Below, piece by piece: positions 5,296 through 21,172 of a DNA stretch of 64,000 bases. The notes below the pieces were generated by a model, which was not told the origin of the DNA, ran no database searches, and saw only the letters and a list, made by a program, of their open reading frames with translations. A program made the translations under genes and the position numbers. Positions within the stretch are counted from its first letter, which is position 1. Every line of letters begins with the position of its first letter. Location: the NCBI GenBank assembly GCA_965372715.1, contig CBDVDH010000011.1, positions 1-64,000 of the forward strand, written 5' to 3'. This DNA is from an uncultured bacterium (lineage in GTDB: Bacteria; B130-G9).

Positions 5296-6027
5296 TTACT
5301 TCAGCGCGGACAGTTCGATTATCTTGCCGACGCCGACCTCAATATAGTGGTCACCGAATTCCTCTTTGAAGAGGTTTCGGGCAAGATCGCCAGAGCAGTG
5401 GCACGGCCCAGCCCATTCAACGCCTAGCTCTTTGAGGCGAGCTATAAGCCGTTGTATGGTCTCCTTGCTCGCTCCGCCAAGATGGAAGCCGCCCGTCACC
5501 AGAAATCTCTTTGCTTTTGTGGTCTTCCGGGCGACCGCGACCATTTTCTCGATGCCAGGGTGTGCGCACCCGCTGATGACCGCGGTTACGGAGGGCGTGG
5601 TTATCACAAGCGCCTGCTCAAGTATGAAACCATCGACCTGCCCTGTTGTAAAAATTCCATCGAACACCTCTCTCGCTCCGTCAACCTCAACGATTTTCGC
5701 GCCGAGCGAGGATACCTTTTTCTTGAACCTGGACGGAAACGAGGCGGGCAGATATACCGAGACATTGGGGTTCGTGCCCAAAAAGGCCCACAGACCATCC
5801 GTGTGATCTCCGTGGATATGCGACAGAACCACGACGTCGATCGACTTGGGATCAATATGAAGGGCCTGCATGTTGGAAAGCAGAATCTCGCCATTGCCGC
5901 CCGTGTCGAACAGGATTGTTTTCTCAAGACCGGTTATGACGCAGCCAAATCCCCAATCGGTCTTCAACCCCTTACGGTAGGGGTTATTGTCATAGACTAT
6001 TGTTATCTTAATGTCCCCCGGAACCAT
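5296..6027 (-). CDS. MBL-fold metallo-hydrolase (7,8-dihydropterin-6-yl-methyl-aminobenzene-phosphate synthase-like family)
   Basis: LFDTG, SHIHGDH (HxHxDH), GCAHPG, GGFHL and PCHCSG motifs. Likely start is ATG 6027. Confidence 0.85.
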   Translation of the reverse strand: MVPGDIKITIVYDNNPYRKGLKTDWGFGCVITGLEKTILFDTGGNGEILLSNMQALHIDPKSIDVVVLSHIHGDHTDGLWAFLGTNPNVSVYLPASFPSRFKKKVSSLGAKIVEVDGAREVFDGIFTTGQVDGFILEQALVITTPSVTAVISGCAHPGIEKMVAVARKTTKAKRFLVTGGFHLGGASKETIQRLIARLKELGVEWAGPCHCSGDLARNLFKEEFGDHYIEVGVGKIIELSALK

Positions 6028-6369
6028 TGTCCGTCGCCATACTTCTGATGCCTCCCGGAAAAACCAAACGCCCACCTGCCCCCAATACAACACAGAATAT
6101 AAGAAAGCCGAACAAACATCTGCCTCGCATACCACTTTTATACTAGCCACAAGCTCTCAAAAACTGCAATAGTGGATGCGAGGCTCCTCGTAAGGCGGAA
6201 ACTAGCGAAAAGGGATCAGGCAGCCGTTCATCTGTCGGTTCTGCCAATGCGAGTCTTGAGATATTTAGCGCTAAAGCTTTGCTCGCCGTTGTTCGATAAG
6301 TACATTTTGGACCTGGCAGCGAGACGACGCACCTTATGGCACGGCACCGTGGAGAAATGGGAGTGTGAG

Positions 6370-7407
6370 ATGAGGCGCAGTGGTCTTCTGCTATTTGTGA
6401 CAGTTGTGGTCATCGTGGGTGTGACCGGTTCGGCCTACGCGGCGACTCCGCCCAGTCTCAAGCTTGTGCCCTACAATGGCGGCTTCTTCTCCATCAATAT
6501 CCCCCAAGGCTGGCAGATTATCACGGCTGGCCAGTGCAGCGCGTTCGCTCTCGTCGTTCGCGACCCCAAGAACCCACTTCGGCAGGTTTTCTTCTTCGGC
6601 GAGGTCGGGCCGGTGTATATGAGCGAACGGCAGCGGCAGATAGACAACCAATACATGGCGATGGGTGGATACCCCGTCACATGGATCGACATGCCGGCTG
6701 TGGCGCCCTTTACGCCCGGCAACTTCATTGCCAACTTCGGCAAGATTGCCGCCAGCCGCATTGGCCAGCAGTTCATGCCTCAGGCGCCCAGGCTTGAGCG
6801 TTTTCAGCTCATCAGCGAGACTCCGTTACCTTCGCTGGTTTCGGGCGGCCAGGCGGCTTTGGTTCGCGGGCTGTTTCTAAAAGATGGCAGGGTCGGACAG
6901 GGACAGTTCGTTCTCACGGTCGGCACCTCGTTACCGATGATGGGCGGGCCCGGCGTAGGGATCGCGCACGGCTTCTTGGTCGCGGGCATAACGGCGCCCA
7001 AGCGTGAATTCGCGGCCATACAGGGGATTCTCACCAAGTCGTTCGAGAGCTTCAACCTCTCACAGAGCTATGTCCAGAATTGCCTCCAGCAGCAAGCCCA
7101 GGCTTGGGATGGCGTCCGAAAGGCGGGACAGACGCTGCGCGAGTCGTCAGATATCCTGATGAAAGGCTGGACGGAGCGAAATAAGACATACGACATCATC
7201 GCTGAAAAGCGGTCGGACGCTATGCTGGGCAAGGAGCGCCTCTACAACCCGAGCACCGGCGAGGTCTATGAGTTTGAGAACGGCTTTTTTGACAAGTACA
7301 ACCTACACCGCCAGCGCTATGAGATGAGCAACCTTCAGCTGTTACCGGGCGACAGCTACGAGCTTTGGATGCAGGCCGCCAAGGATGGCCAGCAGCACCT
7401 GCATTAG
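6370..7407 (+). CDS. Secreted hypothetical protein
   Basis: Signal peptide MRRSGLLLFVTVVVIVGVTGSAYA followed by a long open frame. Confidence 0.7.
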   Translation: MRRSGLLLFVTVVVIVGVTGSAYAATPPSLKLVPYNGGFFSINIPQGWQIITAGQCSAFALVVRDPKNPLRQVFFFGEVGPVYMSERQRQIDNQYMAMGGYPVTWIDMPAVAPFTPGNFIANFGKIAASRIGQQFMPQAPRLERFQLISETPLPSLVSGGQAALVRGLFLKDGRVGQGQFVLTVGTSLPMMGGPGVGIAHGFLVAGITAPKREFAAIQGILTKSFESFNLSQSYVQNCLQQQAQAWDGVRKAGQTLRESSDILMKGWTERNKTYDIIAEKRSDAMLGKERLYNPSTGEVYEFENGFFDKYNLHRQRYEMSNLQLLPGDSYELWMQAAKDGQQHLH

Positions 7408-8302
7408 CAGCTAGCCTAGCCGGGGGCAAAGGCCGCGATCCACACGACCAAGAATAACGTAATCGCAGCAGCTACTGCGAGCACCACCTCAAGACTGAGC
7501 CTCATACACCATCTCCCTGCTTAATCAGAGCTCCCCATCGGCGCAACCTGCCGCCGGGTGTGTCCTCGAATTTCTGTCCTAAAAACTGCGAGAATCTCGC
7601 CGGGTTCCTTCCCTCACTTCTTGAGCTCAGGTTGTCAGACAGCAGCTCGCCGAACTCGTTACTACTGCATAACCTTCCACTGCTATACTTTGCCGAAAAA
7701 GCCGCCTTTCGTCAAGGTGCGGAAGAGCTCCAGATGACAGGAATAAATGGGCAATGTTCAAGACATTCTGCCGGAAGAGAATGGTTCCCAGCCGACTTGA
7801 TGACAGTCAGGCAATCCGTTGGCTCAGAGCGAGGTCAGGGTGATTTGTGGAGGAAGTTGCCAGAGGGGCGTGCCAATGTCTCCAGGGTCAGACCGGCCGG
7901 GCGTGTGAATGTCCTCAATAACGTACCTTATTCGTCTTATTTCACTATGAAGCGGCGATTCAGCATTTGCTGAATCTGTGCATTATAATGAATCTCACCG
8001 GCGCGTAGCGCCTTTGATGATTCCGCGAACTAGAACTCATTAAACGCAGAACGCTGAGGTCTCATATTATGCTCAGCTTCGAGAGAAGGTAGTTCACGCG
8101 CTCGTAGGCATCGCGCTGAAGCATTTCGCGCTCCTCTCCTACAGCCTCCTCAAGTTGCGGAAAGCCGACGATTCGTCCGTGGGGGGCACCGGCCGGTCAA
8201 AGGACGATGTGCTCGGACGTCGGGTGGACCAGTGGTACGCAGGCGTGAGATGTTCGGTCACGCAATTCAAGGGTCATTGACATGGCTATTTCCAATGTTG
8301 GG

Positions 8303-8361
8303 CTCGAACCGCGAGCATCAGCCGCGCCGTCCTCGGCGTCGGCTGGAAGGCATTGTTGGGC
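8303..8361 (-). other. Integron attC site (59 bp)
   Basis: Minus strand GCCCAAC-aatgccttcCAGCCGacgccgaggacggcgCGGCTGatgctcgcg-GTTCGAG: RYYYAAC inverse core, paired L boxes and a GTT core. GCCCAAC is the reverse complement of the cassette's 5' core GTTGGGC (9995-9989). Confidence 0.8.
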
Positions 8362-9196
8362 ATTCGTATTCAGCTTCTTTCTCTAACAATAGCATCTGTT
8401 TGCTGGATAGGCCACCCATCCCCTCGCGCGGAAGATCCTTGGGGATCCTATTGACTCTTGGGTCCACAGAATCGAACCCCCCAAATGGTCTTGCCATCCG
8501 CCTGCGTGCCAATTCCACATATTCTGGGTTAAGTTCGATTCCTATGCAGCGTCTGTTCAGAACTTGGCACACTCGCAGCGTGGTACCGCTGCCGAAAAAG
8601 GGATCCAGGATAAGGTCGCCCTCGCCGGAGGACGCAAGCACCATCCGCGCGACCAATGCTTCGGGCTTTTGAGTTGGGTGGTCCTCCCTTTCTGGATTCG
8701 AGTAGTGAACGTGCGAAAATGTCCATACGTCGCCAGGATTTGCGCCAGCCATATTGTTTCGATCCCGGTAATACTTCTGCGGAACCCGGACAGCATCCAG
8801 GTTAAACTTGAAGTCGTCTGTCTTGGCAAACATGAGAATGTCGTCGTGGCGGGGAGAAAACCCCCGTGTTCTTCCCATGCCTTGCGTGTAATGCCACGTT
8901 ATCCAACTATTGAAGTACATCCCCAATCGTTGATCCAGAATGTCGTACAGGTACGAGATGAACCTGAACCCCATGAATACGTAAATGGTGCCGCGAGGAG
9001 CAAGTATGCGGCACGACTCCTGCAACCATGTCTTAGAGAACTGAAGATACTCCCGGAACCCCTTGATGTCGTGGTTATTGCCGTAGTTTTTTCCCAGGTT
9101 GTAGGGAGGGTCGGCGATGATAAGATCAACCGACTCCGAGTCTATCATTCTCAGTAGTTTGAGAGCGTCGCCAGTCTTTATCTGGATGTCACTCAT
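8318..9196 (-). CDS. Site-specific DNA methyltransferase, N4/N6 beta class
   Basis: ADPPY precedes HPTQKP and LDPFFGSGTT. ATG 9196 overlaps the REase stop. The stop codon lies inside attC. Confidence 0.92.
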   Translation of the reverse strand: MSDIQIKTGDALKLLRMIDSESVDLIIADPPYNLGKNYGNNHDIKGFREYLQFSKTWLQESCRILAPRGTIYVFMGFRFISYLYDILDQRLGMYFNSWITWHYTQGMGRTRGFSPRHDDILMFAKTDDFKFNLDAVRVPQKYYRDRNNMAGANPGDVWTFSHVHYSNPEREDHPTQKPEALVARMVLASSGEGDLILDPFFGSGTTLRVCQVLNRRCIGIELNPEYVELARRRMARPFGGFDSVDPRVNRIPKDLPREGMGGLSSKQMLLLEKEAEYECPTMPSSRRRGRRG

Positions 9197-13010: not shown

Positions 13011-13088
<78 letters not shown>

Positions 13089-13671
13089 CTATCCAGCGGC
13101 CATTCCGGTGATTCTCACTCTCAAAATCCACCCTTTCCCCCAAATCGGTTAAGTCCAGTTCTTAGCGGTGTTCCCGGATTGCCCTAGTCGCAGCTATAGC
13201 GCATATATAGCACTTTTCCGGAACGCGGTAAAAAGAGGCAGTGCGCGCTGAAAGGGGGTCGTGGAGGAAAATCACTACCTTTGGGAGCACGGCTATACTG
13301 CTATTGAGCCGCCGATACGTAGCGCATATATAGCACTTTTACCGCGAATCCCCCTCGCGCATCCCTCGACCAGGCTAGCCACAACCCCCAGCCGAATCGC
13401 TGGACGCCGTTCCACGCTAGGTCAAGCACACCTAGCGGCAGGGTTATACCCCCGGTTCCGCGCGTGCCTGACCTTTTGACGTAAGCGATCATCCAGGCTC
13501 GAACTCTCCTTCCGGCATATCTTGCTCAAATCCGGTTTCACCCAGGGTCTCGAACTCTGTCTCATCGAAATCGAGACCGTAAGCCCATTCAGGATGAAGT
13601 ATCGAGCCTCCGTAGCCTCGCGTGATTATACAGCTATTCAAACCATATCGTTTGCTTGCGTCACCTTTTGA

Positions 13672-14358
13672 CTAGGCCGTCGGTTTCTTCAGCTCGCGAA
13701 CTTCGACCGGGATTAGCTTTTCCTCCTCACCCGGTTCCTCGTATTCGTATTCTGTGCCGTCAGGAATCGGCGTAGCACCTTCGATTAGCATCGGCTCAAT
13801 CCCATAAGCCGCGCGGTCCTCACGACCCGTCGGTTGACCGCTGTATAGGTCGCAGTAAACAATCCGACCCGTCGGCGGAGGTCCGCCAAACTCTGATTTT
13901 TCCCGACAAATGAGTTGACGAATAATGCCGTCGTCGGGCAAGTGTACCACCTCGTCACGGCCAATCAGCAAAACCTGAGGCGCGCGCATCTCTTGCAGAC
14001 GTGCCTCAATCAGCGCGTCGATCTCGATCTTTGCAGCCGGTTTTCCTTCGGCCCGATCGCCTAGTTCTTTCGCAGCGATTGTATCGCCTTGAAGTGCTTT
14101 GCGGAGCTGCGCCAACATAACCGCATAAGCAAAGTTCTTGTCTGTTTGCAAGTTCTCGACCTTTGTTGTGCCGTCATCTTGCAGTATCTCAACGCTGGCC
14201 TCTTTTGCACTAAGCAAATCACGGGCCGCCTCGCTCAGATACTTCGTTTTCGGGGGTCGGCCCTTCGGGTTACCACTTTGGCCAGGCTTCCACGCGTGTT
14301 CCTTCAAACCAGCAAGTTGCCGCTCACGGGAACTCAGTTTATCGTTCTCTTCAGTCAT
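13672..14358 (-). CDS. Terminase small subunit-like protein (DUF5681-type N-terminal motif)
   Basis: WKPGQSGNPKGRPP and ALQGDTIAAKELGDRAEGKP, followed by a long acidic C-terminal extension. Confidence 0.7.
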   Translation of the reverse strand: MTEENDKLSSRERQLAGLKEHAWKPGQSGNPKGRPPKTKYLSEAARDLLSAKEASVEILQDDGTTKVENLQTDKNFAYAVMLAQLRKALQGDTIAAKELGDRAEGKPAAKIEIDALIEARLQEMRAPQVLLIGRDEVVHLPDDGIIRQLICREKSEFGGPPPTGRIVYCDLYSGQPTGREDRAAYGIEPMLIEGATPIPDGTEYEYEEPGEEEKLIPVEVRELKKPTA

Positions 14359-14606
14359 CCCTTATATCCTTTCTTCAAAAATAGGGCCAGGAGGAAAGAC
14401 CGTAGCCAATCCCCCCAGCCAAAAAACAAGGAGTCACAGTCAAACTCATCTGTCAAACTCAATACATATCGGAGCGTCGCTATACACTCCGAATCGCGTG
14501 CGTTTTGCGATTTTCTATACAGTTGCCGAGCAATGCGATCAAGCGCCTCTTGATCGCCATCTTCCTCAGCTTGCTGGCCTCTCAGAATCAGCTCAATGAG
14601 TTTCAT
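14355..14606 (-). CDS. Hypothetical 83-aa protein translationally coupled to the TerS-like gene
   Basis: GAGGA RBS. Its stop overlaps the terS start (ATGA). Confidence 0.55.
   Translation of the reverse strand: MKLIELILRGQQAEEDGDQEALDRIARQLYRKSQNARDSECIATLRYVLSLTDEFDCDSLFFGWGDWLRSFLLALFLKKGYKG
14377..14420 (-). terminator. Terminator-like hairpin A upstream of terS
   Basis: RNA GGCUGGGGGGA-UUGGCUACGGUCUU-UCCUCCUGGCC followed by CUAUUUUU. Confidence 0.6.
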
Positions 14607-14615
14607 TTATTCCTC

Positions 14616-14661
14616 AAAAAAAGTGGCCGGGGAAAAAGACCGTAGCCAATTCCCCCGACCA
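14616..14661 (-). terminator. Terminator-like hairpin B upstream of the 83-aa ORF
   Basis: RNA UGGUCGGGGGAA-UUGGCUACGGUCUU-UUUCCCCGGCCA followed by CUUUUUUU. A TATAAT lies upstream at 14721-14716. Confidence 0.65.
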
Positions 14662-14757
14662 AAACCAAAGGAATCGAATCAAGGGGCCCTACGCCTTGAT
14701 ACACGCCAAAGCATTATTATACGCTCTCCAACCCACGGAGGTTCGAGAAATGAGAGG

Positions 14758-15788: not shown

Positions 15789-16180
15789 ACTGTTACTCCT
15801 TTGTAACTTGTGTTTCAGCACGTCCCTGGCAGGCGTGCCTTAATCCCAAAATATAGCTTTCAATAAGCGCCTCGGTCCATACCACTTCCTCGTATTTGCG
15901 ATTTCTTTCAATTTATAGCGTCGTGCAACTGCGTTGTTCGTGGCCGAATATCATGCACAAATATGGCCTATTTGCCGACGATTATTAGGCACTTTACCTA
16001 TAACACAAACGCTGACTCTCACATCCCGCTCCAGAAGCCAATCGACGTTCCATTTCTACTTTACACAAGAGCATATTATCAGAACCAACTGCACGCTGCT
16101 ACCCCGGTGCATTGCAGCGTCCCAGTTTTTGGAGGCCATCCGCCTCGCGGGCAAAGTGTTGATTCAGTCATCTCAGCGTT

Positions 16181-16495
16181 GTCGTTACCGTCGTTACCGA
16201 CGTCACCGTCGTCACCAACTTTGCAGCCGTGTGGCTTACTTCCACAGCGTGACGTCACTAACGACACTAGTTTCTCTTATATATATACTTTTGCGCGTAC
16301 ATAACTGTATGTGCATATTTAAGATTCTTCTTTTCTCCAGATTCCCACAGGTCACGTATATATATACACCAGAATATACCGTCGTTACCGTCGTCATCAA
16401 TGTCCTTGTGGCCGTGTAGCCACAGTTTGGCGCGACGGTAGCGCTTTTTTACCGACGTCACTACCGTCGTTACCGACGTCGTTACCGTCGTTGTT
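16181..16495. repeat. Putative replication origin: 9-bp iterons flanking an AT-rich core
   Basis: G(T/A)CGT(T/C)ACC-like units at 16181, 16190, 16199, 16208, 16251, 16381, 16390, 16454, 16466, 16478 and 16487. (TA)n tracts lie in 16270-16380. Confidence 0.75.
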
Positions 16496-18928
16496 GACCC
16501 AGTCAGGTTCCTGTTCAGGTTCCTGTTTACACCAAAGGTGAATCATTCGTTGCTTGCTATGTATCTGTCTGCAATAGACATTGGCGTTCTCCAGTGGCCT
16601 TTGAAGAGCTTTGATATTCTTGACGAGTCGTGCTGCGTCTATAGGCCATGACTTCGGCGGACGTTGCGGGTCAAAGTCGGCATGTCGAGTTAGCACTTGA
16701 TATAGTTCAGTTGGGGACCCTTTGAACTCATGGTTGAACAGTTGGTTTAGGAAGTTGAGTATAGTTGAGGCGAGGATGTTACCTTCCACGATGTCATCGA
16801 GATTGTCGGACGCATTGCTTCTGTATGCTTCGTAGAACTCTGCGTCGTCGTGCCCGAGTGCTCTAGTAACGGCTATGCCCCACCGGGCAGCGTCGGCCAT
16901 CCTATATCGTTCTGTGAGTTTCACGTCGGGATAGATACCGATGGCCTTGCCGATGATGTCGAGCAATGCCCCGAATATGCGCGGCTTGGCTGCCATGAAC
17001 CCGTCCCGGAATGCTTGTTCATCTTCTGGTTGTGTCAGGCGCTCCAGGTGAATAGAGAGGCACCGGTCGAGCAGATCGGGTTGCCTGACGATATTATCGA
17101 TGCCGTTTAAGATAAAAACGGGTTGGAATACGCGCACGATGTCATCGTCGTCCGTGTGCAACTTGCGCTTAGTCTCCCCGGCTCCCGTTATCGCAGAGCT
17201 TATCAGGTCGGATAGATTGACTCTGATATAGGTCAGGTTGTCGAGTATCACGACGCGGTTATGGCAGAGGTAGTGCGTCAGCTTCCCTAAGTCGTAGATG
17301 TCCCGGCAGCTTGGCGATACGGACGGGTCGATGAGTTCACGCAAGGCCCACGCCGCCGATGACTTGCCGCTCCCCTCTGTTCCGTTGAGCACGAGCGCGA
17401 ATGCAGGCCGCTCTGTCAACACGATGCCGCCGACGAGGAATGCCAAGACAAGAAGCCGATGTTTGGCTTCTGTCTCTGCGTCTCCGAGCGACGGCAAGAA
17501 CTGCCAAAGCTCATCGATATGGCCGCCTCGTTCGGGATTGCATTGTTGCCTTTGATGCTTGTATCGTTTGAAGATGGGATGCTCCATTATTTGGAACTCC
17601 CAGCCACTCGGTCTGATCGTTACGGTCTGCCATTTATCGTTGACAAGATCATATCGGACAGTCCGCGATTCGGCTTCGGTCATCGCTCTACAGTGTAGTG
17701 TCCGCTGCCCCTCTGCTATCGCCTCGAGCGCATCACGGACATCGACAACCGTTGAACGGCCTACGGGCCTGTCTGTTGTATGCTGTAGGAACAGCTTGCC
17801 CAGGTCGGCTCTGACGACGGCGCTCCTGACTGGTGCAATCTCAGCGTGAGTAGTCTGTTGGAACTCCGCGTATGTTTCGCCGAACTGGTCATGGAACACG
17901 ACATATCGCTTCTTGGCTAGCCGGAACAGCGCTGTCTTGTCAACGACATGCTCAGGCTTCTCATCCTTTTTGCTTGTCGTGGCTGTCGGCTTTTCGACCT
18001 TCGCGGCAGTGTCCTCCTGCTTTCGGAACCATTGGTCGAGGTCCCCACCGCCGACAACGAAGTCAGTTACGTCGTGGACACCCGTCGGCAATCGGAACAC
18101 CAGCACGTCCGGGAACTGCGCTTGCCACTTTTTGGCCATTGCCTGACCCGGCTCATCGGCGTCAGGTATCAACACGACTCGGTCGAACTGCGTAACGAGG
18201 CCTCTCAATTGCTTGCTGATTTGCTGAGCCGACCCTATCGCCACCGCCGACATTGCGAGCTCCTGAAGGACCAGGCCCGCGTCAAACTCACCCTCACAGA
18301 CACACAAAGTCCGGGGATCACCGGGCAGATAGTAAAGCGTCTTCCGGCTTTCGCCGACCGCCTTGTATCGGTCCTGACTGTCTTTCGGTTTCAGGCGGCG
18401 GATGTTGACTCCTATCACGTCCGCGCCCGTGACCCAGGGAATCGTTATGCCCATGATAGCCTTATTGTTGCCAACAGGTTGATAATCCGTCTTGTTGTAT
18501 CCGAGGCGCATCATCTTGATCGTCTCATCCTTGAGTCCTCGGGCGTGTAGATAGTCGAGCGCCTTTTTGCCCTTGTCGGTCCACAGTTGCGCCTCACAAT
18601 TCTTGACGAAATCAGCGGCGAATGTCATCCAGACGAAGCGTGTTTTTTGGCTTGGGTTCTGTGGTGTCGTCTGAGCTGGCAGCACTTCGCCAAGATATTC
18701 CTTTGCTTCTGGGAAGGTCATCCCGCGTCTCTCTTTCAGATACGCGTAGATGTCACCGTTCTTCTCGCATCGCCGACAAGCCCATCGGTCAGTACCGCTG
18801 TGATTGAGTTGAACCCTGAAGCGGTCTTTACCTCCGCAGAAAGGACACGGCCCATGCCATTCGCCGCCGCCTGCTCCAGAGACTTTAGCGAGTTTTACGT
18901 CTGTGCCTATCAGATCGAGTAGAGTCAT
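16397..18928 (-). CDS. Primase-helicase replication protein (Zn finger + Toprim + P-loop ATPase)
   Basis: CPFCGGKDRF...CRRC zinc finger, CEGEFD and PDADEPG Toprim motifs, Walker A GTEGSGKS and VILDN Walker B. GGAGG RBS before ATG 18928. Confidence 0.88.
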   Translation of the reverse strand: MTLLDLIGTDVKLAKVSGAGGGEWHGPCPFCGGKDRFRVQLNHSGTDRWACRRCEKNGDIYAYLKERRGMTFPEAKEYLGEVLPAQTTPQNPSQKTRFVWMTFAADFVKNCEAQLWTDKGKKALDYLHARGLKDETIKMMRLGYNKTDYQPVGNNKAIMGITIPWVTGADVIGVNIRRLKPKDSQDRYKAVGESRKTLYYLPGDPRTLCVCEGEFDAGLVLQELAMSAVAIGSAQQISKQLRGLVTQFDRVVLIPDADEPGQAMAKKWQAQFPDVLVFRLPTGVHDVTDFVVGGGDLDQWFRKQEDTAAKVEKPTATTSKKDEKPEHVVDKTALFRLAKKRYVVFHDQFGETYAEFQQTTHAEIAPVRSAVVRADLGKLFLQHTTDRPVGRSTVVDVRDALEAIAEGQRTLHCRAMTEAESRTVRYDLVNDKWQTVTIRPSGWEFQIMEHPIFKRYKHQRQQCNPERGGHIDELWQFLPSLGDAETEAKHRLLVLAFLVGGIVLTERPAFALVLNGTEGSGKSSAAWALRELIDPSVSPSCRDIYDLGKLTHYLCHNRVVILDNLTYIRVNLSDLISSAITGAGETKRKLHTDDDDIVRVFQPVFILNGIDNIVRQPDLLDRCLSIHLERLTQPEDEQAFRDGFMAAKPRIFGALLDIIGKAIGIYPDVKLTERYRMADAARWGIAVTRALGHDDAEFYEAYRSNASDNLDDIVEGNILASTILNFLNQLFNHEFKGSPTELYQVLTRHADFDPQRPPKSWPIDAARLVKNIKALQRPLENANVYCRQIHSKQRMIHLWCKQEPEQEPDWVNNDGNDVGNDGSDVGKKALPSRQTVATRPQGH

Positions 18929-19083
18929 AGTGCAACCTCCCGGTCTAGTGGCGCGGCCTTGCAAAATAGGACTTGACATTGGGGATCGAAGGAGCGTATT
19001 GTTGACTTGATGGTTTTCACGTCTTCGGCCTTTTCCCGGTAGCACGGGGCGGGCCGAGGACGTTTTGCTTTTTGTCTAGTCAT
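18925..19083 (-). CDS. Putative 52-aa leader ORF coupled to the primase gene
   Basis: MTRQKAKRPRPAPCYREKAEDVKTIKSTIRSFDPQCQVLFCKAAPLDREVAL*. Starts 4 nt after the xis stop, and its TGA overlaps the primase ATG. Confidence 0.5.
   Translation of the reverse strand: MTRQKAKRPRPAPCYREKAEDVKTIKSTIRSFDPQCQVLFCKAAPLDREVAL
18973..19002 (+). promoter_or_regulatory. sigma70-like promoter antisense to the primase leader
   Basis: TTGACA (18973-18978), 18-nt spacer, TATTGT (18997-19002). Confidence 0.6.
19009..19073 (+). ncRNA. Candidate ~65-nt antisense (countertranscript) RNA
   Basis: Follows the promoter. Hairpin ACGUCUUCGGCC...CCCG-GUAGCA-CGGG...GGCCGAGGACGU has a G-U pair valid only on +, then UUUGCUUUUU. 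Confidence 0.5.
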
Positions 19084-19087
19084 TGCA

Positions 19088-19288
19088 CTATCGCCCGGCG
19101 TGCAGTTCGACCGGCTGTCGCTCTTGTTCCTCTAGCCATTTCTGAATGGCTTTGGGTCGAAAACCGAGCTTGCGCCCCCCGCCAATCTTAATGTGCGGGA
19201 TTCGACGCTGCGAGGTCATCTCGTAAATCGTGCAAACCTGCACTCCAAGCACGTCCGCGACCTCTTGACTATTCAGTAGTTTGTCCAT
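19088..19288 (-). CDS. Excisionase/AlpA-like HTH DNA-binding protein
   Basis: LLNSQEVADVLGV..TIY....RIPHIKIG....F....I..WL. GGAGG RBS. Divergent from the integrase. Confidence 0.88.
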   Translation of the reverse strand: MDKLLNSQEVADVLGVQVCTIYEMTSQRRIPHIKIGGGRKLGFRPKAIQKWLEEQERQPVELHAGR

Positions 19289-19416
19289 TTCCAACCTCCA
19301 CAAACAAGTTTGATTGAAAGTCATCTTGAAAACTCTTGCTTCAGAGTAACAAACTGTCTTATACTGGTCTTAAATGTGTAAAGAAGCAGTGTTCGCATAG
19401 GCTGGAGCGTCGCTAA

Positions 19417-21036
19417 ATGGTCAAGAAGAAGAGACCCCAAATCGCGTCAAACATCGATCTGTTTGAGGGGCTGAAAAAGCATCTTGCGGAGCATTTTGAG
19501 ACGATACAAGAGCCGGGAATAGTCCGCCCATGTATTATCGTTGTTGATCGATCTAATCCGCCCGTTTGGCTCCAGCCAGTTACCACTTTCCCTAAGGACC
19601 CACAGAAGCCAAAAGAGCTGGGAAGGCTTCAGTTTTGGCGCGCATCATCGAACCGAATCGACTGGGATTCGGAGCACTTGAAGTTGATCAATGGGGGCGC
19701 GAGGGCGCTTCATGGCGCGCTTTTCCCGAATGCTCCGCCGATGGAGAATGAGCGAAAGCACGGCAGCTTGGTCCTGGTGTTCACCTTCGACCTTGCGAAA
19801 TGGCGGCCTCCCCGAGGGCGTGAATATGACTGGGCGCGCGGACGTTTTGAGTGCTACTGCCGTCGATGCGGACAGTTCTTTTTGGGGGGTCACAAGAGAG
19901 ATAATCATTGTTCACAATGCAGACGATACAACTCAAAATATGTCAAAGGAGGGACTCAAATGGCAATCTTCAAGCGCAAGACGAAGGACGGCAGTTTCCT
20001 CTATTATGTCTCATACCGCGACCCCTCTGGTTGCTGGAGACGTGAATCGACGCGCCTGAGCAACCTCAAGGCCGCTGAGCGATTTCTTGAGGCCCGCAAA
20101 ACCGCCGTAGCTGAGGGCCGGTTCCTCGATGTCAAGGACAAGGCCCGGATAACGTTTGCGGAGCTAGCGAAGGATTATCTCAACTATGCGCGCCAGGCCG
20201 GTCGCAGCCCCGAGCGCGCCGAATATGCGCTCAAGCCGTTGCTTATCTTCTTTGGCGCGAACACCCTCGCCTCGGAGATCAAGCGCGCGAACGTTGAGGA
20301 CTATCGGGATAGCCGGTCGCAAGAGGTCAAGCCTGGGACGGTTTTCCGAGAACTGACTACGCTGCGAGCCTTGTTCAATCGAGGCGTCGAGCGTGACCTG
20401 TTACCTGGCAACCCAGCGGCCCGGATCCGAATGCCCAAGCTGAAGGGCCGTCAACGGCTCCTGTCCCAGGATGAGATTGAGGCGCTTCTGAGGGCTTGCC
20501 AGTCAAGTAAGGCGAAGTACCTCTATGATGCTGTCAAGTTGTGTCTCCTGACTGGTCTGCGAAAGTCCGAACTGCTTTGGCTCCGCTGGGCCGATCTTGA
20601 CTTGAAGGACCGGGTCCTGGTCGTTGAACACGGCAAGGGAGACAAGCAGCGCATGATCCCGCTGTGTGAACAAGCTGTCGAACTACTGAGGCGCCTGGCG
20701 AGGGATTCCGAGTTCGTTATCAATGACCAGGGCCGTCAGATCAAGAGCATCCGCCGGTCCTTCAACTACGCAGTAAAGAAGACCCAGTTGCCCGATGTCG
20801 TCTTTCACGATCTCAGACACCAGTTCGGCTCGATGCTGGCAGCCTCGGGGGCCGATCCGTTTTCAATCAGAGCGCTTCTCGGACACTCGGACCTGAAAAC
20901 CTCGATGATCTATGTCCACCTCAGCGGCGGCAAGCTGCGCCGCGCGGTGGAATCGCTGCCGGAATTGACCCCGAAAACGGAGGCAGTGCGCGCCTCTGAA
21001 TCGGGTCAAAATTATTCCGCGGTCGGAGGGGCCTGA
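19417..21036 (+). CDS. int: Tyrosine integrase (core probably starts at ATG 19960) with an in-frame 181-aa N-terminal Zn-ribbon region
   Basis: GLRKSEL, HGKGDK, FHDLRH and LLGHSDLKTSMIY catalytic motifs. AAGGAGG at 19946-19952 precedes ATG 19960. The upstream part has CRRC...CSQC. Confidence 0.93.
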   Translation: MVKKKRPQIASNIDLFEGLKKHLAEHFETIQEPGIVRPCIIVVDRSNPPVWLQPVTTFPKDPQKPKELGRLQFWRASSNRIDWDSEHLKLINGGARALHGALFPNAPPMENERKHGSLVLVFTFDLAKWRPPRGREYDWARGRFECYCRRCGQFFLGGHKRDNHCSQCRRYNSKYVKGGTQMAIFKRKTKDGSFLYYVSYRDPSGCWRRESTRLSNLKAAERFLEARKTAVAEGRFLDVKDKARITFAELAKDYLNYARQAGRSPERAEYALKPLLIFFGANTLASEIKRANVEDYRDSRSQEVKPGTVFRELTTLRALFNRGVERDLLPGNPAARIRMPKLKGRQRLLSQDEIEALLRACQSSKAKYLYDAVKLCLLTGLRKSELLWLRWADLDLKDRVLVVEHGKGDKQRMIPLCEQAVELLRRLARDSEFVINDQGRQIKSIRRSFNYAVKKTQLPDVVFHDLRHQFGSMLAASGADPFSIRALLGHSDLKTSMIYVHLSGGKLRRAVESLPELTPKTEAVRASESGQNYSAVGGA

Positions 21037-21120
21037 GGAAAACCCATAGCGCATATATAGCACAGTGCTTTTCTTGACTGTTGGAACAGCGGCCATATAG
21101 CGGTGGTTTGGCGTGCCGAA

Positions 21121-21172
<52 letters not shown>

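Follow-up and report, generated by a model that had tools for sequence, protein, structure and literature searches.

The 64,000-nucleotide (nt) stretch analyzed here, referred to below as the window, comes from an uncultured bacterium of the GTDB lineage B130-G9 (contig CBDVDH010000011.1, positions 1 to 64,000 of the forward strand), and it carries an island of about 8.1 kb in which an excisionase-type gene, xis, and a primase gene form an operon on the - strand. The two genes are separated by a spacer of 159 nt that contains, on the + strand, a promoter-like site followed closely by a terminator-like hairpin. A convergent small RNA gene with a sigma-70-type promoter and an intrinsic terminator could well be encoded in this spacer, a reading that we hold to be evenly poised. 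The features of the spacer and the genes that border it are as follows.

18973..19002, + strand: promoter-like site TTGACA-18-TATTGT (TTGACA at 18973-18978, TATTGT at 18997-19002), facing against the operon
19009..19073, + strand: predicted antisense RNA of about 62-65 nt (10-nt 5' tail, long imperfect hairpin, U-tail), deduced from the promoter and the hairpin
19019..19063, + strand: terminator-like hairpin, beginning 16 nt past the promoter, with three G.U pairs on the + strand and A.C mismatches on the - strand
19064..19073, + strand: U-tract TTTGCTTTTT, directly 3' of the hairpin (hairpin 19019-19063, then UUUGCUUUUU)
18925..19083, - strand: 52-codon open reading frame (ORF) that fills the spacer, with an ATG located 4 nt past the stop of xis and a TGA overlapping the primase ATG (ATGA)
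19083..19091, - strand: 5' arm AUAGUGCAA of a 9-nt complementarity, covering the stop of xis plus the initial A of the AUG with which the 52-codon ORF begins
18927..18935, - strand: 3' arm UUGCACUAU, between the Shine-Dalgarno sequence (SD) and the AUG of the primase, taking in the AU of the AUG
18936..18940, - strand: primase SD GGAGG, 7 nt before the ATG and within the last codons of the 52-codon ORF, read from the sequence
16397..18928, - strand: primase of 843 amino acids, with an N-terminal Zn-ribbon and Toprim and a C-terminal part with a P-loop motif
19088..19288, - strand: xis, excisionase-type HTH_17 gene (TIGR01764 excise, 3.7e-09), the longest ORF starting from 19324

Promoter-like site, terminator-like hairpin and predicted antisense RNA

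A sequence-only reading of the locus had proposed a + strand promoter, TTGACA-18-TATTGT, and this site is indeed present at 18973-19002. It is the sole 10-of-12 match within 12-22 kb of the window, where the scan gave 12 hits versus 5.4 +/- 2.6 in shuffles, and the two strands of the whole window (128 kb of strand) contain 6 matches of this quality, itself included. Of the five other 10-of-12 matches, 3 occupy gaps that precede an ORF of the same orientation, so a match of this kind is somewhat predictive in this genome. The same reading had described a long hairpin with a U-tract whose single G-U pair worked on the + strand only; the hairpin and the U-tract hold on the + strand, and the strand preference comes from three G.U pairs rather than one. 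When the 78-nt segment with the hairpin was folded, it reached -37.1 kcal/mol (z -4.81), a value that none of 200 shuffles equaled, and the hairpin has the lowest energy among the terminator-like sites listed in the window. Its energy is -32.2 kcal/mol on the + strand versus -24.2 kcal/mol on the - strand, that is, 8 kcal/mol better on the former, and a U-tract follows it on the + strand alone, none being present after the hairpin on the - strand.

The combination of both elements is rare. Only three promoter-plus-terminator pairs no more than 120 nt apart were found in the window, and the pair at 18973-19073 is by far the best of them, the two others being weak (promoters matching at 9 of 12 positions; hairpins of -18.5 and -13.4 kcal/mol). 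No such pair appeared in 296 control segments (four 330-nt segments from each of 74 loci with related primases), looser thresholds included. Because the hairpin is strong, a promoter precedes it and the pair is rare, an antisense RNA of about 62-65 nt is accepted as a reasonable prediction. The features and their rarity are direct observations, from which we infer that the RNA is produced and that it pairs with the operon mRNA. Complementarity of the predicted RNA to the operon mRNA is complete and covers about +11 to +75 of the 52-codon ORF, so that the onset of the duplex at about +11 would fall inside the footprint of an initiating ribosome and its far end about 70 nt before the primase SD.

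The 52-codon ORF and the folding of the mRNA leader

The minus-strand ORF of 52 codons claimed by the sequence-only reading, extending from just after the xis stop to an ATGA overlap with the primase start, was recovered at 19083-18925. When the spacer was shuffled 5000 times, coupled ORFs of at least 50 amino acids arose in 116 cases and those of at least 25 amino acids in 1045. With codon usage trained on the island genes, the frame of the ORF scored best of six; its score stood at the 11th percentile of 70 in-frame windows, was exceeded by 0.7% of 140 off-frame windows and was matched by 5% of 2000 stop-free shuffles. These values suggest that the ORF is mildly coding-like. Among 1.84 billion representative proteins, the ORF product gave one borderline match, P0024 (288 amino acids, E 9e-4, in 4 stretches), which is probably compositional, and the search of the Atlas returned no usable match. 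The four close primases all begin with M-T or M-N, so that an ATGA overlap is possible in each of them; this is weak evidence, second codons that start with A being common anyway.

Two other readings of this sequence were discarded. A type I toxin-antitoxin system was ruled out since the peptide is basic and not hydrophobic. The - strand mRNA at 19063-19075 presents a five-A run, a 5-nt spacer and the strong hairpin, and a -1 shift would lead into the frame of the primase, which is open from 19075. A -1 frameshift cassette was nevertheless rejected because the A-run mirrors the U-tract of the terminator, because the primase frame scores below the leader frame across the spacer, and because three homologues with aligned N-termini share the same start Met without an extension.

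The start of the primase gene at ATG 18928 is backed by the GGAGG and by aligned N-termini in three of the four close family members. The strong SD context GGAGGTTG is common to primase and xis; the latter, whose stop is the TAG at 19090-19088, more likely starts at ATG 19288 (GGAGG, 6 nt, ATG, in the GGAGGTTG context) than at 19324.

The 9-nt complementarity that had been noticed in the mRNA, between a segment spanning the xis stop and another one located between the primase SD and its AUG, is real and perfect (AUAGUGCAA / UUGCACUAU, at 19091-19083 and 18935-18927), and only 12 of 1000 shuffles yielded a 9-nt complement to the primase start region. The probability of the 9-base pair (bp) stem was 0.98 when 181 nt were folded, and it was 0.33, 0.04 and 0 with 211, 251 and 445 nt. 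The minimum-free-energy fold of the 211-nt leader omits the stem, and this fold is ordinary (z -0.59; 53/200 shuffles). If formed, the stem would mask bases between the SD and the AUG, the SD itself remaining outside. Moreover, the leader ORF would not be strictly needed to open the stem, because a ribosome finishing xis would open the 5' arm.

Other roles were considered for these sequences. A transcription attenuator in the mRNA was ruled out, as no U-tract follows any - strand hairpin of the spacer, and a MITE-like insertion bounded by the 9-mers was set aside, no target duplication being found in the flanks. The 8-mer TAGTGCAA occurs 3 times in the 64 kb, always in the island (14205-14212, 18928-18935 and 19083-19090). 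When one mismatch was allowed, 9 of the 24 matches fell in the island, which makes up 12.5% of the window, and the window-wide count was 24 versus 30.8 expected. The TAGTGCAA sequence may be a protein-binding motif.

The island and the relatives of its primase

The bounds of the island are given by a perfect 50-nt direct repeat (13037-13086 / 21121-21170), and the features that complete its description are listed below.

13037..13086, + strand: left att copy, inside tRNA-Pro(CGG) 13011-13088; left end of the island
21121..21170, + strand: right att copy, duplicating the 3' part of the tRNA; right end of the island
19417..21036, + strand: tyrosine integrase (int), divergent from xis (Phage_integrase, 6.9e-33)
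16177..16495, no strand assigned: origin-like region in which 9-nt repeats (TACCGTCGT / CACCGTCGT) flank an AT-rich block at about 16270-16375, straddling the primase stop at 16397

The region at 16177-16495 looks like a replication origin with iterons adjoining the initiator gene, and the island looks capable of replication. The primase shows Zn_Ribbon_Prim, Toprim_2 and DnaG-like domains and is not of the plasmid RepA type. Its C-terminal 540 amino acids (16397-18028; residues ~300-843) match no Pfam family, and they contain a GxEGSGK P-loop-like motif that is invariant in four homologues; this part matches a phage primase/helicase at 25% identity.

The island has traits of phage satellites of the PICI or P4-like kind (an integrase, tRNA att repeats, an excisionase-type HTH protein and a primase-type initiator adjoining an origin-like region), which makes the label of satellite plausible. 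Its other ORFs are four, small or of unknown character, one of them with a DUF5681 domain (unknown function). Family searches and the Atlas recognized no capsid- or packaging-hijack family among these remaining ORFs, whose products could serve such a purpose all the same, and a 277-amino acid island protein had no match in the Atlas search. The base composition of the island is unlike that of the host.

The sequence-only reading had also stated that no repressor is evident in the element. Family searches detected no repressor-like domain in the island proteins other than the HTH_17 protein, in agreement with that statement; the HTH_17 product itself matches phrog_66, "excisionase and transcriptional regulator", and may thus be a regulator.

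Several repeats and extensions were observed elsewhere in the island. About 250 amino acids (19417-20166) extend the integrase at its N-terminus and belong to no confident family, giving weak zinc-binding-type matches alone (HypA, E 0.0049; zf-C2HE, E 0.66). A 21-nt repeat (TAGCGCATATATAGCAC...) is found at 13197-13217 and 13320-13340, just inside the left att, and at 21047-21067, just inside the right att, and its copies are candidate arm-type sites for the integrase or the excisionase. A 66-nt direct repeat, 74% identical (14370-14435 / 14610-14675), has in each copy a - strand terminator-like hairpin with a T-run, and both copies are placed 3' of successive small island genes. The island's own genes end in similar - strand terminators (14385-14420 and 14624-14661).

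Close homologues of the primase were three of 22 hits (P0002-P0004), at 54-59% identity. The comparison was extended to 80 distant loci, with about 26-37% identity over most of the N-terminal primase matches and up to about 50% over short segments. Two of these, L076 (match from residue 345) and L012 (no start codon), were dropped, leaving 78 loci with heuristically assigned starts; 74 had enough flank for the terminator and promoter-terminator counts, 77 entered the coupled-ORF count, and 77 had an upstream ORF (L009 had none). The arrangement of promoter, hairpin and ORF is absent in these distant relatives, and the gene order is different there: the upstream ORF is of helicase type in 35 of the 77 (AAA_25 in 17, DUF3987 in 10 and D5_N in 8). 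In those 35 loci, the helicase-type gene and the primase share a strand, and 100-250 nt mostly separate them. Locus L003 contains two primase-like ORFs in tandem (5860-6738 and 7627-8790), and not one long fused gene. When the primase protein was compared with those of phages, only matches at about 30% identity or less were obtained.

A possible role of the small RNA and its alternatives

The spacer would thus hold a small RNA gene convergent to the xis-primase operon, with its start near 19009 and its terminator at 19019-19073, and the most likely function of its product would be a dosage-dependent negative control of primase synthesis after transcription. Two routes to repression can be inferred from the position of the duplex. 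In one of them, ribosomes that have completed xis would be kept by the RNA from reinitiating at the spacer ORF, which would break a relay from xis through the leader ORF to the primase; in the other, the 65-bp duplex would be cut and the primase part of the mRNA lost. Because the duplex ends about 70 nt before the SD, the RNA would be unable to mask the primase start directly. Relay along the leader may not be obligatory for the primase, because this gene has its own strong SD.

In either route, xis would be spared by the RNA and the effect would scale with gene copy number. Since the target of the RNA lies downstream of xis, the control of operon transcription must lie elsewhere, the HTH_17 protein or a helper being possible regulators. 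The proposal of the sequence-only reading that satellite replication is silenced by an antisense RNA in place of a protein repressor was, for this same location of the target, too strong, and the RNA would rather act as a copy-number or leak damper than as the master off-switch of the island.

Several observations weigh against this small RNA and its role in the leader. The case rests on a single sequence. The -10 hexamer of the promoter fits at 4 of 6 positions only, and the promoter spacer is 18 nt long. No YUNR U-turn motif was seen by eye in either loop of the predicted RNA. Searches of Rfam at the gathering score found no match for the spacer, the matches in the window being tRNA-Pro and its att-site duplicate only; at E values up to 10 the single match of the spacer was LhrC, with 17 bits versus a cut-off of 110, and neither CopA nor any other curated antisense family appeared. 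The spacer DNA had no match in phage or plasmid collections, in the 80 loci or in the rest of the window. With respect to the leader ORF, its SD is poor, and because of this its translation would depend on ribosomes just done with xis; with codon usage trained on the host it scored below all 242 in-frame windows. Its product belongs to no Pfam, PHROG or NCBIfam family, and a word search of the protein collection retrieved no homologue, its own sequence not being recovered either. The primase, on its side, owns a strong SD and might initiate independently. The distant relatives also count on this side: an HTH_17 gene was the nearest ORF upstream of the primase in 0/77 loci (E up to 1e-4), and antisense terminators upstream of the primase are no more common than in the controls, terminator-like hairpins being found antisense to the primase leader in 20/74, in sense orientation in 25/74 and antisense inside the gene in 26/74.

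The reading that goes further than a damper takes the locus as a full three-part switch of the R1 type, in which the antisense RNA blocks a real leader peptide, translation of the leader opens a 9-bp stem that masks the primase, and the whole is the main silencer that replaces a repressor. Every part of such a switch is present in the sequence, and the antisense RNA part is well founded in silico, with its promoter, its one-directional terminator and no equivalent in the control segments. The rarity of the 9-nt complement, with its 5' arm placed exactly on the xis stop and the leader start, the stem probability at 181 nt, the scarcity of coupled ORFs of that length in the shuffles and the lack of a repressor-like domain in the other island proteins are also in agreement with it. 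The remaining parts are weaker. The stem depends on the length of mRNA folded, fading from 211 nt onwards and missing from the minimum-free-energy fold, and it leaves the SD uncovered, while a ribosome finishing xis would open its 5' arm without the leader. The leader has neither a homologue nor a good SD, and short coupled ORFs occur before related primases at the chance rate (14/77 versus 11.1 expected). Furthermore, since it would be unable to repress xis, the RNA could not silence the element alone, and a regulatory role of the HTH_17 protein is possible in view of its match to phrog_66. Taken as a whole, the complete switch appears to us rather unlikely.

Simpler explanations need only part of these features. 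The + strand terminator might insulate the genes beyond it, stopping stray antisense transcription that leaves the primase gene and would enter xis in antisense and int in sense, with a promoter match that is fortuitous or weak and no regulatory RNA. The strong, one-directional terminator, the position of int downstream on the same strand at 19417 and the imperfect promoter would all suit this purpose, but the chance that the last 60 nt before a given site contain the end of a 10-of-12 promoter is about 0.003 (6 hits in 128 kb of strand), and the promoter-terminator combination was found in none of the 296 control segments; we regard this explanation as quite unlikely. That nothing in this ordinary intercistronic DNA is functional is improbable too: the sequence is a single one, the pattern search that first singled it out was free and the overall fold of the leader mRNA is unexceptional, but the four features are jointly rare. 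A further possibility, which we consider very improbable, is transcriptional interference, with polymerase collision or occlusion over 65 bp lowering the read-through from xis to primase and the RNA being incidental. A convergent promoter inside the operon, between xis and the primase, would be well placed to uncouple both genes; against this, the strong terminator 16 nt past the promoter leaves a very short collision zone, and the three G.U pairs point to selection for the folding of a + strand RNA. Finally, the two 9-mers might act as DNA sites, flanking the spacer in inverted orientation and being bound by a protein of the island, as the confinement of all three TAGTGCAA copies and of 9 of the 24 one-mismatch matches to the island would suggest. 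However, the one-mismatch count is not above chance across the window, the third copy lies within a gene in no obvious regulatory position and the base composition of the island differs from that of the host. We hold this idea to be highly improbable. The reading that we favor is, then, the small RNA acting as a damper of primase synthesis.

Antisense RNA in conjunction with a coupled leader ORF is characteristic of plasmid replicons. In R1, the CopA RNA has two hairpins and the tap leader has 24 codons, and in IncI1/IncB plasmids the antisense RNA measures about 70 nt and consists largely of one stem-loop, resembling in this the RNA predicted here. Antisense RNA together with a leader peptide has been described to control the initiator of R1, IncI1/IncB and IncI2 plasmids (PMC8053102). 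As in the CopA/tap/repA system of R1, the antisense RNA gene predicted here in silico lies within the leader of the initiator mRNA and is equipped with a separate promoter and terminator, the short ORF ends at the initiator start, and the antisense RNA would target the beginning of this ORF, an R1-like place to block translation. Unlike R1, there is no RNA sequence or Rfam similarity, the initiator is a DnaG-type primase and not RepA, and the spacer has one hairpin, a 52-codon ORF and a candidate masking stem within a tRNA-integrated element whose operon starts with an excisionase gene. In IncI1/IncB plasmids (ColIb-P9, Inc RNA-repY-repZ; pMU720, RNAI-repB-repA), the leader ORF is described as coupled to the initiator, and control requires that the target loop form a pseudoknot with a site adjoining the initiator SD (PMC8053102). 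There is no homology to these systems, and inspection of the spacer by eye only revealed no convincing complementarity for a pseudoknot of this type. SGI1 offers another comparison, since in this integrated mobilizable island translation of the initiator of the S004-repA pair is reported to depend entirely on a leader ORF that overlaps it, and an inverted repeat spans the stop of the leader and the start of the initiator; control is by helper-plasmid activators, RepA is of the IncN2 type and the word "antisense" does not occur in the main text of the report (PMC7826253). The stem of SGI1 is local, and the 9-nt arms of the spacer described here span 147 nt.

Phages and their satellites provide other parallels. 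The sar RNA of P22 is a short RNA transcribed against its operon from a promoter located in an intercistronic gap, and it covers the ribosome binding site of the downstream gene directly; in our case the duplex would end well before the primase SD. The OOP RNA of lambda is also a phage antisense RNA in an intercistronic gap, resembling the case presented here. In P4, satellite immunity relies on an RNA instead of a protein, and this CI RNA, a cleavage product of the sense leader, exerts its effect on termination. A small RNA encoded by the PLE satellite acts, according to the title of the report, on phage and satellite genes (bioRxiv 10.1101/2022.04.08.487710). The spacer gave no Rfam match to the sar, OOP, P4 CI or PLE RNA families.

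Given the absence of RNA homology, the primase as initiator and the setting in an integrated island behind an excisionase gene, the spacer element is not a member of the R1, IncI1/IncB or SGI1 families. Phage satellites and related islands are known to be regulated by repressor or activator proteins and, in P4, by the sense-derived CI RNA. In the literature searched on phage satellites or chromosomal islands and antisense RNA, an antisense RNA before a satellite primase was not reported. The broadest claim that could be made, that of a plasmid-type copy-control circuit in an integrative satellite-like island, with a relay from xis through the leader to the primase, a gate at the leader formed by a cis-antisense RNA in proportion to dosage and a long-range stem that pairs both start sites, so that excision and replication are set independently on one transcript and with no protein repressor of replication, is unlikely.

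As it stands, the small RNA gene is a prediction from a single sequence and, if true, it would be a variant of plasmid-style antisense control in a new setting. It would also provide a search rule for the genomes of uncultured organisms, namely a convergent promoter and a terminator in the gap before an initiator gene. For the islands themselves, it would show how tRNA-integrated elements hold replication off while they remain integrated, and how their copy number is limited after excision, separately from excision itself.

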